A DNA stretch of 14,163 nucleotides from a virus. Its lineage: Duplodnaviria; Heunggongvirae; Uroviricota; Caudoviricetes. Every line of letters begins with the position of its first letter. The stretch's first letter is position 1. Below the pieces are notes generated by a model. It saw only the letters and a list, made by a program, of their open reading frames with translations, ran no database searches and was not told the DNA's origin. A program made the translations under genes and the position numbers. Shown here piece by piece: positions 2,287 to 5,996 of the stretch. The stretch lies in the IMG/VR virus record IMGVR_UViG_3300026224_000024; one strand, 5' to 3'.

Positions 2287-2841
2287 TTATTCAGGCGCGC
2301 GAATCTGTTCCGCACAATGCAACAATGCTTCTGTCACTTCCTTAAGCGTTACGGTATCGGCATCATCCAGTCCTGCAACTTTTGCGTGCCTGACAAACGC
2401 CGCGCGAAGCTCGTTAAACGCCACCGCCCGTACATCAGCCAGGAAAGCATCTGTAGCCGAGGTTTGCGGCATACCTCCGTCTGTTGCGCAGATATACGCA
2501 TCAGATAGTTCATCCTGCTCGCCATCAAACACGTAGCAACTCTGTACGATAAATTTATTCAGCTCCGCATTCTCCGCCGCAAGTGCAGCAAGATTAGTCT
2601 CCAGCTCTGCAATGCGTTTGCTTTGGGCTTCCCGTTCATCAAGCACTGCCAGCACGGTAGCCGGATTGGCTGCTGCTATGAATCGCTTATTGGCGCGATT
2701 ATCTGGTCCTGAGCATGATGCTATGTAGTAATTTGCGTTCAGTCCGGCATCAGCAATTAACCCATAATCATCAGAACACCATTCGCCAGGGGTTGCATTT
2801 TCTGCCGCCATTCGCAGTGCCTGGTAATTAATGTTGCTCAC
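2287..2841 (-). CDS. Ead/Ea22-like prophage protein (coiled-coil)
   Basis: The track ORF begins at a TTG (2871). A better start is the GTG at 2841-2839, preceded by AGGAGGA and overlapping the upstream gene's stop. The N-terminus [21 protein letters not shown] and the coiled-coil [17 protein letters not shown] resemble recalled Ea22-like proteins. Confidence 0.55.
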
Positions 2842-3571
2842 TGGTTTCCTCCTGGCAAAGCTGGGCGACAATATCGCGATATTTATTCAGCTCCCGCAGC
2901 GCGCCACAGACTCGCTCCCATTTCCGGATATCACTTTTCGCCCGACGCAGTTCGCGGTTTGCCTGTCGCAGCGATGGCAGAACCAGATTATCCACTCGCT
3001 TCTCAAGCGGCTGCACAATGTCCGCCACAGTTTCTGTTTTAATATCTTCCTGTGTTGCAGCTTCCTGTACTGGTAACGCAACACATGCAGGCTGAGGAAA
3101 GGCTTTACCATCAGTTTCCGCTACCGATGCCGTTTTCGGCTCTGCTGGTAAATTACCGCCCGGCATGCAGTAACGAAATTTACCGTTCTGATTAACACGA
3201 ATCAGACGACCTTTGCTGATTGCCATTGCCAGCGTTGAAGCCACTTTGCGGGATGTTGTACCGAACAGCGTAGCCAGTTCATCCGCCGTTTGTGATCCGC
3301 GTTGTTCAATCGTCGCGGTTAAATCGCACTCTGAGATTTTCGCTACTGTCGCCGTGGTGGTTTCTTCCGGCTGTTCTTCTGGCGCTGGCTGTTCCTGCTG
3401 AACGTTGTTATCAGCCACACGCCAGGTGTATACGCTTTTATCAACGAAGCCAGCCTTTTTCAGTTCCCACAGCTCGTTCAGTACTTCTTCACGACTGATA
3501 TCAAGTCGCGCAGCCAGCTCTACCGACGTGGCTTTTCCCATCGCTTTCAGTGCGTCAAAAACAGTCTCCAT
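2828..3571 (-). CDS. Hypothetical prophage protein with two winged-helix-like segments
   Basis: 247-aa ORF with an ATG at 3571 preceded by GGGAGGA, 20 nt downstream of the ydaV stop. Two HTH-like segments (aa ~14-43 and ~93-124) and a basic helical C-terminus. Confidence 0.65.
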
Positions 3572-3591: not shown

Positions 3592-4338
3592 TTACTTTTC
3601 AATACCTGGCTGACCAACATTCGGGCGCCAGCTCTCCCAGTTAAAATTCACCCAGCGCCCGCCGTTCATGGTCATGCGATCCATAATCCGCTCGCCGAGC
3701 AATGTTTTCATGGCCTCATAGTTCAGGTTTGTCAGCATTCCCACGCTACGCATCGACGCTGTCCGTCGATCAATAATCTGGTGCAGTACCACCTGCTCGT
3801 TTTTCGTCTCGCGCTGAATGCCAATTTCATCAAGAACCAGCAGCTCCACTTCGCACAGTTCCCGCAAAAATTTTTCGCCTGACTGCCCGTCGTCATAGCT
3901 GGCGTGCAGGGCGCTCATAACATCAGCCACGGTAACCACAATCACTGTCTGACCGTCTTTCAGCAGGCGATTCCCGATAGCTGCCGCTAAGTGATTCTTC
4001 CCGGTACCAGGTTTTCCGCTGAATGCAAAATTTGTACACCCGGTCATCAGTTCATCGGCGATGGATTTCGCCTGGCTTAACGCGTATCGCTGGCCGTCGT
4101 TCTGCACCTGGTAATTCGCAAACGAGCATTTACGGTGCAACGGCTGGATGCCTGAGCGATTCAGAATTTTTTCCACCCGCAACTGGCGATTCAGGCGGTT
4201 GATCTCCTCGCTACGTTTCTGGCCTTCAGCAAGTTGCCACTCGCGCCACTCCGCAACCGTTCTGAATGGAGCGGTTACATGTGGTGGGGCCAGTCTGCGG
4301 ATACGCTCCAGAACGCCTCCTGTCGCAATATTTTTCAT
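3592..4338 (-). CDS. ydaV: DnaC/IstB-like AAA+ helicase-loader (YdaV-like)
   Basis: 248 aa with a Walker A-like GKPGTGKN and Walker B LLVLDEIG. Lies immediately downstream of the replication-initiator-like gene, as the P/DnaC gene does in lambdoid phages. Confidence 0.85.
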
Positions 4339-4344
4339 GGTCTG

Positions 4345-5133
4345 TTACCCCCTGAAGCCTGGCGGGATCGCACTGTCCGGCAACGAGACGGTGTTAACCT
4401 GTCGGAGCAACGTCTCAGGCCGAACACCTTTCGGCGCGAACAGGCCCTGGTATTCATTGGCGATGCTGTGTCGAATCACCTGCTCAGGTGTAAAACCCTG
4501 CTGACGGAATTTTTCCAGTTCCCGTATCGCCCCGTTAGCGCCCTGCTCCGTTCGAATCGGTTTTCGCAATGCCTGTCTGAACCGGACCCACTCATGCCAG
4601 AGTGTTTCCGGCAACCAATCGGGCAGCTCAATAGCCTCCGGCTCGAATTTTTTAGACGCTCGTTTTTGGCGAGGGGGATTTAGGGGGAGATCAGTATTTA
4701 GATCTTCCTCTTCCTCTTCCTCTGGTAACGCTTTTTGATCCGTTTGTGTAACGCCGGCAGCGTTACCTTTTCGTTTCAGTTCACGTATTTTTGTAACTCG
4801 CTCGTTTGTAACCGCCCGTTTTTTAGAGCTTTTTCCGTTATGGCGTTCAAAGTTAGGTAGAGAAAGCCCAACGTCATTTTCGACCAGCCATCCAACCTGA
4901 ATTAACGCATCAGCAAAACCAGCCATAAAAGTGATGCGATCTATTGCACTTTTTGTAACGCCGCGAGCGTTACAATCTGCATTACCGTCTATCATTTGTT
5001 GATCCGCCCATGCCCAGAAGCGAATAACCTTCCCTAATGCGGCATCTGGATCAATATTCAGAATCTCAGCAAGCCTGAATATTTCCGGCTTATCCGGCGT
5101 AATAACCTCGAGCTTTATCCAGTTTGAAGCCAT
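4345..5133 (-). CDS. ydaU: YdaU-like putative replication initiation protein (O-like; acidic inter-domain linker)
   Basis: 262-aa ORF with an ATG at 5133 preceded by AAGGTGA. It has a central acidic linker (PEEEEEED), and iteron-like repeats lie inside its coding sequence. Precedes the DnaC-like gene. Confidence 0.75.
   Translation of the reverse strand: MASNWIKLEVITPDKPEIFRLAEILNIDPDAALGKVIRFWAWADQQMIDGNADCNARGVTKSAIDRITFMAGFADALIQVGWLVENDVGLSLPNFERHNGKSSKKRAVTNERVTKIRELKRKGNAAGVTQTDQKALPEEEEEEDLNTDLPLNPPRQKRASKKFEPEAIELPDWLPETLWHEWVRFRQALRKPIRTEQGANGAIRELEKFRQQGFTPEQVIRHSIANEYQGLFAPKGVRPETLLRQVNTVSLPDSAIPPGFRG
4724..4813. repeat. Iteron-like cluster: palindrome GTAACGC-N5-GCGTTAC (4748-4766) flanked by GTAAC half-sites at 4724-4731, 4791-4797 and 4806-4813; candidate replication origin
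   Basis: Read directly from the sequence. The cluster lies in the DNA encoding the YdaU inter-domain linker, analogous to lambda ori inside the O gene. Confidence 0.45.
4955..4973. repeat. Second copy of the GTAACGC-N5-GCGTTAC palindrome
   Basis: gtaacgc cgcga gcgttac read directly, about 207 bp from the first copy. Confidence 0.5.
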
Positions 5134-5146
5134 TTGTTTTCACCTT

Positions 5147-5165
5147 GTAACGCTCGCAGCGTTAC
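5147..5165. promoter_or_regulatory. Third copy of the GTAACGC-N5-GCGTTAC palindrome, overlapping the ydaU ribosome-binding region in the ydaT-ydaU intergenic space
   Basis: ttgtaacgc tcgca gcgttaca read directly, ending 14 nt upstream of the ydaU ATG. Candidate operator or autoregulatory site. Confidence 0.45.
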
Positions 5166-5210
5166 ATTTAACTGATACCGAACAAAACAATCCGGCACGA
5201 TTAATTTCAA

Positions 5211-5633
5211 TCAATGCACTACGACAGAATCACCGGACGACCCACCACCGCTGAAATGTGCTTTCCGGTAAACGGCCTGGACTGCATCATCATGCGCATC
5301 AATTGCCGTACTCAACGCTTCCTGCGCCGCCAGTAATGCACGGCGTTCCAGGGTATCGAAGATGCAGAGTCGGTGACGCAGCTCGCGCGGAAGAATTGCC
5401 AGAACCGCAGGGATCAGTGTCTGAATTTTTTCCCTTTGCGCTTTCGTTTCACCTTTTAACCAACGGTGATAGATGTTCTGCTGATTATTCCAGTCCTTGC
5501 CTGGTACCAGGGGCAATTCGCCGCCCCCCTGGCGCAGATATTCTTCAGTAATTGCATTGGCTACCCATGCCTGCCCTTTTTCAGCGGCCAGGGCTAACAG
5601 CACTGATTCGATGTGCTCATGCCTGATTTTCAT
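5211..5633 (-). CDS. ydaT: YdaT-like protein (toxic partner of the RacR-controlled ydaS-ydaT operon)
   Basis: 140-aa ORF with an ATG at 5633 preceded by AGGAG. Overlaps the ydaS 3' end by 17 nt. Length and position match Rac ydaT. Confidence 0.8.
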   Translation of the reverse strand: MKIRHEHIESVLLALAAEKGQAWVANAITEEYLRQGGGELPLVPGKDWNNQQNIYHRWLKGETKAQREKIQTLIPAVLAILPRELRHRLCIFDTLERRALLAAQEALSTAIDAHDDAVQAVYRKAHFSGGGSSGDSVVVH

Positions 5634-5892
5634 GAATCAACTCCTGTGCATTTTGTGTGTTAGCCTTACATCCAACAGGTAAACCATCGGTCGGATTCGG
5701 GTAGATATCAGGCCGGAGTTCATGAGGTGTAACCTCGAAATTCGTAGCCTCTGCGATACGCAATACCTTTTCAGGGCTTAACTGACTACGTCCAGTAGCA
5801 ACGAGGCTAATCATTGATTGCGAACAACCAGCCAGCGCGGCCAAACAAGACTGTCGTACACGATTTTTTTTCAAATATTCATCTAATGTCAT
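5617..5892 (-). CDS. ydaS: YdaS-like Cro/HTH protein
   Basis: HTH-like segment QSCLAALAGCSQSMISLVATG. I prefer the ATG at 5892 (SD AAGGTGA, 6-nt spacer) over the first ATG at 5931, which has no SD. Divergent from racR. Confidence 0.7.
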   Translation of the reverse strand: MTLDEYLKKNRVRQSCLAALAGCSQSMISLVATGRSQLSPEKVLRIAEATNFEVTPHELRPDIYPNPTDGLPVGCKANTQNAQELIHENQA

Positions 5893-5996
5893 AAGGGTCA
5901 CCTTAGTAATATTCGCCAAAATATTAACCATACTAATTTAAATGATCAATACTTATATCAGTTTGAGATTATGAGCTGTGTTCATAAGATGGTGGT
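5893..5996. promoter_or_regulatory. Divergent racR / ydaS-ydaT control region with palindrome TAATATT-N6-AATATTA (5907-5926)
   Basis: 104-bp AT-rich intergenic region between divergent start codons. The palindrome is read directly. The TAATATT motif recurs at 6626-6632 upstream of ydaG. Confidence 0.5.

Follow-up and report, generated by a model that had tools for sequence, protein, structure and literature searches.

The stretch of DNA considered here, the 14,163 nucleotides (nt) of IMG/VR virus record IMGVR_UViG_3300026224_000024 (hereafter the window), is part of a Rac-like Escherichia coli prophage, 99.8% identical to a prophage of strain RM11911. In and just ahead of a gene that resembles a replication initiator it carries three copies of the palindrome GTAACGC-N5-GCGTTAC. 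Comparison with relatives indicates that these palindromes are real and under strong selection at the level of the DNA. The explanation we favor, and think likely, is that they are sites for dimers of the winged-helix N-terminal domain (N-domain) of the protein encoded by that same gene and that, with the elements adjacent to them, they make up the origin of replication of the prophage.

All three 19-mers are exact (Table 1), and their start-to-start distances are 207 and 192 base pairs (bp), which bears out the initial annotation's description of three full palindromes about 200 bp apart; a scan of the 14-kb window with up to two mismatches allowed found no others. Dinucleotide-preserving shuffles gave an expected chance count of 0.06 for the 19-mer, with three copies reached in none of the 200 shuffled sequences. 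The repeats extend further, to TGTAACGC...GCGTTACA, and the GTAAC pentamer is itself over-represented in the window (34 observed vs. 18 expected), with 9 of the 34 copies lying within 4725-5165. Extra GTAAC half-sites had also been listed near the first palindrome. The one at 4725-4731 holds up, having the full 7-nt arm in a register and orientation that are conserved, but those at 4793 and 4808 are probably spurious: they lack the CG of the arm, their orientation is rare upstream in the family, and they come from Val-Thr codons that stand where the family has Leu-Thr, a pattern suggesting that they are probably not binding sites. No further palindromes were found outside the initiator gene in the whole genome of vB_EcoS-673R7, nor in the scanned 38 of the 39.7 kb of epsilon15.

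Relatives for comparison were drawn from 70 loci of 5 kb each, one genome per species, with G+C contents of 0.43-0.68; they come from Enterobacterales, Pseudomonas, Burkholderiales, Xanthomonadales-like bacteria, Planctomycetes, Verrucomicrobia including Akkermansia, an Acidobacteria metagenome-assembled genome, and others, and positions in them are counted relative to the start codon of the initiator. Exact GTAAC-N9-GTTAC is present in about 35 of the loci, at approximately +148 to +160, at approximately +337 to +391, or at both, and was found nowhere else in the 5-kb loci. When two or three mismatches are allowed, about 50 of the 70 carry the palindrome at the gene, and the motif is kept in relatives from at least six bacterial phyla, so that the conservation which the initial annotation had proposed as a check is indeed seen.

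Selection on the DNA itself, beyond the protein that it encodes, is apparent from the codons used. Forty loci were chosen by the peptide motif G-N-A-x-x-V-T alone, as encoded by the copy near +150. The Gly codon of this motif is GGT in 34 of 35 (21.5% being the background in the same genes), the Asn codon is AAC in 34 of 34 and the Val codon is GTT in 34 of 34 (background 30%), while the codon that precedes Val ends invariably in GC, CC or AC, whether the amino acid is Ser, Gly, Thr, Arg or Asn. The second coding copy, in the DNA for the linker that follows the N-domain, is read in frames 0 and 1 in loci of the GTAAC class and in frame 2 as well in loci of a GTCAC class described below, frame 2 being one that would give a TAA stop codon in the GTAAC class; one stretch of DNA is therefore translated into different peptides. 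The first copy in epsilon15 and phiPSA1 is at +65, not +150, and is therefore not bound to one peptide. A comparison of 60 distinct alleles from E. coli and Shigella shows variation at only 4 of 42 arm positions, and there by rare variants only, as against 10 of 15 positions for the spacers and 153 of 814 for the rest of the region. Two of the three window copies do encode xNAxGVT in the same frame, which could mean that the repeats simply follow from a recurring peptide motif, N-A-x-x-V-T, or are owed to chance. We reject that explanation, to which we give almost no credence: the third copy lies between genes, the codons are fixed at synonymous positions, the linker copy is found in all three reading frames, where it encodes different peptides, and none of the 200 shuffles produced three copies.

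The palindrome also exists in variant classes. The GTCACGC-N5-GCGTGAC class includes eight loci with the same layout; CTAACGC-N5-GCGTTAG is seen in L052, GTTGCGC-N5-GCGCAAC in L036, where the 19-mer occurs twice in identical form, and (T)GTCCGC-N7-GCGGAC(A) in epsilon15, phiPSA1 and L067. The changes that define a class are mirrored in both arms, in both intragenic copies and in the extra half-sites, and the left 5-mer is identical at the two intragenic copies in 41 of 44 loci. In the GTCAC class, replacement of Asn by His (AAC to CAC) is paired in six of six cases with a synonymous Val change, GTT to GTG, 12 nt away (Fisher p = 2.6e-7, a value that is only indicative, the loci being phylogenetically related).

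Symmetrical changes of the arms would keep pairing in RNA too, and each of the palindromes can fold into a hairpin of 7-9 bp, the upstream one giving a 9-bp hairpin directly 5' of a Shine-Dalgarno-like sequence; they might thus work as hairpins in the mRNA, with an effect on its stability, translation or processing, and not as sites in the DNA. We consider this very improbable. The 101 sites examined include 44 non-Watson-Crick arm pairs (43 hard mismatches and one G.U), in a count that used sites picked by their similarity to the consensus and that therefore inflates the apparent conservation. The arm sequence itself is near-invariant across phyla at positions 2-6, beyond anything that mere pairing would call for, and the dyad has beside it unpaired half-sites of its own class, whose register and orientation are fixed. 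No Rfam match was obtained at the palindromes at E <= 1, and no U-run follows the hairpins on the gene strand.

As to what binds the sites, the upstream neighbors in the relatives are mutually unrelated (methylases, HNH nucleases, antirepressors, CII-like or ParB-like proteins), the downstream neighbors vary (DnaB-like helicases, lambda P-like proteins, DnaC-like loaders), and the C-terminal domains of the initiators differ among loci that share the palindrome. With neither neighbors nor C-domains conserved, the N-domain is the sole candidate binder that is present with the site everywhere; a helicase or loader gene is always alongside, which fits the role of an initiator. The site classes coincide with N-domain clades, and for that reason comparison of the classes does not distinguish the recognition residues. 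Helix-turn-helix proteins are encoded nearby, and a different protein (a host factor, YdaT, the helix-turn-helix protein with DUF1627, or the loader) could in principle be the one bound. Given that the genes around the site are wholly different among the loci sharing it and that its classes follow the N-domain clades, we see little prospect of this, and we know of no host factor common to six phyla that recognizes GTAACGC. YdaT, for its part, recognizes TTGATT-N6-AATCAA (PMC9986795, PMC11879457), a motif that differs from the palindrome and occurs elsewhere in the window.

The linker-coding copy has homologs in the relatives at +337 to +391. Half-sites around it were counted in 43 loci, using for each locus sites of its own class, against a background of 1.25 per kb. 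Upstream of the dyad (at -20, -32 and -44 from its center) 51 are left-oriented vs. 5 right-oriented, and downstream (at +15/16 and +27) 40 are right-oriented vs. none left-oriented, so that half-sites flank the linker dyad in a register of 11-12 nt. The last right-hand half-site (GCGTTACC, CGTGACC, GCGGACC or GCGCAACC) leads straight into a polypurine tract; the one in the window is at +402, encodes Ala-Leu-Pro and likewise abuts the tract. In most loci the tract is (GAGAA)3-6 regardless of G+C content, and is followed by a TATAAA-like sequence. Arg codons within it are AGA in 79 of 79 cases, vs. 60 of 841 elsewhere in the same genes. With its period of five, (GAGAA)n encodes a charged linker, a permutation of EKRRE, in any frame, and the peptide 'A-L-P-E-E/R-E-E-K' that appears conserved in the protein alignment is the half-site and tract in translation. 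In the window, GATC sites at 4689-4692 and 4701-4704, 12 bp apart, bound the A+T-rich stretch that comes next.

From the observed sites, their conservation, covariation and layout, we infer binding, unwinding and recruitment of a loader, along lines that may be pictured as follows. The origin core would run on the gene strand from about 4770 to 4690 and consist of the dyad, half-site, polypurine tract and short A+T-rich stretch. Initiator protomers would assemble on the dyad and its flanking half-sites and distort the DNA, as in the model for lambda O; the polypurine tract, our proposed unwinding element, would open together with the A+T-rich stretch beside the dyad; and the C-terminal domain would then recruit YdaV, the DnaC-like loader, along with the DnaB of the host. 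The N-domain-coding palindrome would serve as a conserved distal site and the intergenic palindrome as an extra, enterobacterial one, the distal sites acting perhaps in looping or cooperative assembly, in handcuffing, or in braking transcription of the gene.

Other features were seen in the same neighborhood. After the polypurine tract, within 4673-4704, the gene strand has two runs of five C (CCCCCTAAATCCCCC, encoding PLNPP), and C-runs followed by G-runs are present at the equivalent position in the unrelated loci L005, L019, L031 and L042; these may be the counterpart of the palindrome that lambda ori has past its A+T-rich region. A terminator scan marks 4748-4766 with the following CTTTTCGTTT as terminator-like on the plus strand, antisense to the gene, a call that is probably incidental, produced just by a palindrome followed by a T-rich run.

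The N-domain-coding copy, to which the initial annotation gave no special attention, is the more widely conserved of the two distal sites. It is kept as widely as the linker copy, and about 45 loci have a homolog of it between +136 and +160. Most loci have 189-231 bp between these two copies and the epsilon15 group has 279-300 bp; no helical phase is clearly preferred. The decayed half-site just upstream of it in the window (Table 1) is an intact GTAACGC at the equivalent position in L005, L007, L008, L010 and L011. An Enterobacterales-specific insertion of four amino acids (e.g., D-C-N-A), placed in a low-confidence loop of the protein and at 4974-4985 in the window, is in the DNA this duplicated half-site; judging by the sequences, the DNA element appears to have forced a loop insertion on the enterobacterial initiators.

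The third copy, upstream of the gene, occurs in five enterobacterial lineages with otherwise unrelated flanks, and among the 70 loci was absent outside some Enterobacterales. It ends 14 to 25 nt before the ATG, and lies at -42 to -44 in L005, L006, L008 and L010; since its start thus varies from -32 to -44, closeness to the ribosome-binding site is not conserved. Nor does it overlap the ribosome-binding region, as had been claimed, but only abuts it, ending 1-2 nt before AAGGTG. A crude consensus scan of 5100-5260 found no sigma-70-like promoter. Autoregulation through this copy, which the initial annotation suggested, is unsupported, though not refuted, and the copy may instead belong to a looped origin complex, serve as a brake on transcription of its own gene, or be an mRNA element. 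Two YdaT-box-like inverted repeats were also noted in this part of the window. One, at 5623-5640 with one mismatch, lies over the ydaT start codon, where a YdaT box has been published for K-12 Rac (PMC9986795, PMC11879457). The other, at 5197-5214 with two mismatches, covers the stop codon of ydaT at a distance of 32 bp from the upstream palindrome, and YdaT could by this means act in the ydaT-initiator intergenic region also.

The position of one copy just upstream of the start codon, and the spread of three sites over 420 bp, unlike a compact origin, could also be taken to mean that the palindromes are operators only, at which the initiator or some other regulator represses or roadblocks the initiator-loader operon, with the origin located elsewhere. 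Palindromes bound by Rep dimers do serve as autorepression operators in the iteron plasmids pPS10, F and R6K. On the other side, the scan found no promoter-like sequence by the upstream copy, which is limited to some Enterobacterales and stands at a varying distance from the ATG; the universally conserved copies sit in coding sequence; and repression has no need for what accompanies the linker copy, an oriented array of half-sites with polypurine and A+T-rich DNA where lambda has its ori. Operator and origin roles are compatible, and a purely autoregulatory one seems to us unlikely, if less so than the RNA or other-binder explanations.

The gene had been named ydaU, which is apt for the C-terminal 120 or so amino acids (about 90% matching to K-12 YdaU) but not for the N-terminal 140 or so, which are unrelated; identity to K-12 YdaU over amino acids 96-262 is 64%. 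K-12 YdaU scores 2.7e-26 against DUF1376 (PF07120), whereas the window protein has no match to it, nor to any Pfam family at E <= 0.01. The N-domain is followed by a disordered linker (amino acids ~123-165; pLDDT, the model confidence score, is below 50 for 127-148 in the AlphaFold2 model) and a YdaU-type C-domain (amino acids ~165-262). It shows the helix-turn-helix and subsequent beta-hairpin wing of a winged-helix domain, and searches of Pfam, NCBIfam and PDB sequences gave no match to it; aligning the family with K-12 YdaU by hhalign gave a single match, in C-terminal columns and with a probability of 8%, and no sign of N-domain kinship. The initiator is thus a chimera of an unclassified winged-helix N-domain and a YdaU-type C-domain. 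PHROG 2509, 'replication initiation protein', matches it over its full length (8.5e-89), and phrog_6451, 'replication initiation O-like', matches amino acids 126-262 (3.3e-39).

The 506-bp segment with no similarity to K-12 Rac (Table 1), which lies between stretches sharing 91-93% identity with that prophage, takes in the N-domain, the three palindromes with the half-site, the intergenic region and most of the polypurine tract. Because K-12 carries a different N-domain with different repeats at this place, the alignment indicates that the N-domain and its repeats have been swapped as one unit relative to K-12 Rac.

The minus-strand genes of the window are in the order ydaS-like, ydaT, initiator, ydaV and the DUF1627 gene, with a racR-like repressor gene on the plus strand; the ydaV product is the presumed partner of the initiator C-domain. 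The DUF1627 protein has weak N-terminal helix-turn-helix matches (HTH_20, TrmB, HTH_Crp_2). Several database 'proteins' join the initiator N-domain to DUF1627, probably as a result of deletions, or of joins made in assembly, that span ydaV.

Table 1. Elements of the proposed origin and neighboring genes in the window (+ and - numbers in the first two columns are counted from the initiator ATG; aa, amino acids)
Feature	Position	Strand	Basis or remark
Linker-coding palindrome, +367; proposed origin dyad	4748-4766		exact match
Extra half-site GCGTTACC on gene strand (GCGTTAC then C)	4725-4731	-	+27 register from dyad center
Polypurine tract AGAGGAAGAGGAAGAGGAAGA, (GAGGAA)3, 21 nt, encoding EEEEEE	4703-4723 (+410)	-	enterobacterial form of (GAGAA)n
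A+T-rich stretch GATCAGTATTTAGATC (+ strand) between two GATC	4689-4704		sequence
N-domain-coding palindrome, +160, encoding C-N-A-R-G-V-T	4955-4973		exact match
Decayed extra half-site GTAATGC	4979-4985	-	12 nt upstream of +160 palindrome
ydaT-initiator intergenic palindrome, -32 to -14	5147-5165		exact match
Initiator gene, 262 aa	4345-5133	-	open reading frame list, translation
Initiator N-domain, aa 1-~120	4774-5133	-	part of 262-aa protein
Exchange cassette, 506 bp	4707-5212		blastn of window vs. K-12-type Rac
ydaS-like, cro analog	5617-5931	-	open reading frame list
ydaT, cII analog	5211-5633	-	open reading frame list
ydaV, DnaC/IstB-like helicase loader	3592-4338	-	Pfam IstB_IS21 9.5e-20; Bac_DnaA ATPase 9e-8
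DUF1627 gene	2828-3571	-	gene next after ydaV

Likeness to lambda, whose ori lies inside O, had been suggested at the outset, and for layout and position the comparative evidence is strong; the likeness does not extend to ancestry or to the number and spacing of the sites. In both cases palindromes of 18-19 bp that are bound by the initiator (a binding that here is predicted) lie in the linker-coding part of the gene, about 350-430 bp past the start codon, with a purine-rich A+T tract next on the coding strand; in lambda itself there are four annotated iterons at +348 to +432 of O, followed by ACAAAAGACACTATTACAAAAGAAAAAAGAAAAGATTATT, purine-rich on the coding strand. The gene order of cro-like, cII-like, initiator and helicase loader is the same, and in lambdoid phages, too, the N-domain and its sites (the O/ori module) are exchanged as one module. 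The window N-domain has no match to Pfam Phage_rep_O (PF04492), its hhalign comparison with lambda O gives a probability of 0.1%, and a DnaC-like loader takes the place of P. Instead of four tandem iterons some 20 bp apart there is a single dyad, accompanied by half-sites in the 11-12 nt register; a second conserved dyad lies 190-300 bp upstream in the N-domain coding region, sometimes with a third, and the window's family has a strict pentanucleotide tract of (GAGAA)n.

The Rep proteins of iteron plasmids (pPS10 RepA, F RepE, R6K pi) are winged-helix proteins as well, whose dimers bind inverted repeats; they also bind single repeats beside an A+T-rich region, and distant sites can be bridged. 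The present system differs from theirs in that the sites are inside the coding sequence of the initiator itself, and the crude scan found no promoter overlapping a palindrome. In the basal unwinding system of bacterial oriC a DnaA box is followed by DnaA-trios and then an A+T-rich region. The present system may resemble it in that a putative double-strand recognition element stands directly beside a repeat of short period and single-strand bias, with A+T-rich DNA following; the period is 5 rather than 3, and the protein is a different one.

K-12 Rac has the same backbone and gene order as the window, with the C-terminal domain and ydaV 91% identical in DNA. It differs in having a DUF1376 N-domain, repeats of (A)TGTTCAAACA in the linker-coding part of ydaU and no GTAACGC palindromes, and a gap of only 12 bp between ydaT and ydaU. 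An active origin, oriJ, is reported for Rac (PMC3945230), and a search of the literature did not find its map position. The linker region of K-12-type ydaU (L002 3435-3520, minus strand) has (A)TGTTCAAACA in direct and inverted orientation and then a purine-rich A+T stretch; it is plausible that these are the oriJ core for the DUF1376-type initiator.

Several points weigh against the interpretation of the window sites as an origin bound by its own initiator, besides the manner in which sites were picked for the arm-pair count and the relatedness of the loci, both mentioned above. About 20 of the 70 loci, mostly Verrucomicrobia, have no clear palindrome; in L041-L046, L051, L054-L061 and L064 neither palindrome nor polypurine tract is clear, and there are weak AACG...CGTT-like matches only, the sites there being perhaps too diverged or differently arranged. 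Peptide-level selection on the tract is not fully separable from selection on the DNA, because every frame gives EKRRE. The A+T-rich stretch in the window is short (about 13 bp), and the G+C content of 4680-4739, at 0.425, is only modestly low. With a single dyad and a second one some 200 bp away, as opposed to four iterons, the mechanism known from lambda may not transfer directly. Finally, no published description of the sites or of an origin for this family was found, in a search that had most subscription journals outside its reach; the Eru paper deals with different proteins and does not name an origin.

The first 115 or so residues of the initiator form a conserved module that is attached to many different C-terminal domains, and an exhaustive search (E <= 1e-3) gave 6,539 N-domain representatives at 50% identity. 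Among isolated phages the N-domain is found in a Rac-like E. coli phage, TL-2011b, Xanthomonas CP2, Salmonella epsilon15, Pseudomonas PAN70 and phiPSA1, where the proteins carry the annotations replication initiator, O protein or primosomal protein I. Whether these constitute an undescribed and very widespread family of phage and prophage initiators (some 6,500 clusters at 50% identity, with no Pfam model), having the origin in their own coding sequence and a recognition sequence and (GAGAA)n tract held across at least six phyla, is a broader proposition for which we put the chances at about even.

If the interpretation is correct, the origin uses two dyads about 200 bp apart and an oriented array of half-sites, unlike the tandem iterons of lambda, and the peptide motifs G-N-A-x-x-V-T, A-L-P and EKRRE are in part by-products of selection on the DNA. 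It would then be a clean case in which one set of bases serves both a DNA element and a protein, where the element sets the choice of codons and even the insertion of a loop, something relevant to the interpretation of conserved peptide motifs. A large family of phage initiators that lacks annotation would also gain a testable origin and a recognition code; its members occur in Rac-like prophages of E. coli and Shigella, the Stx-strain phage TL-2011b, epsilon15, CP2, phages of Pseudomonas, and Akkermansia and Planctomycetes prophages. The specificity classes found in nature (GTAAC, GTCAC, CTAAC, GTTGC and GTCCGC) would provide ready-made swaps, and origins in prophages and in phage contigs from metagenomes could be annotated by means of the motif and its (GAGAA)n tract.

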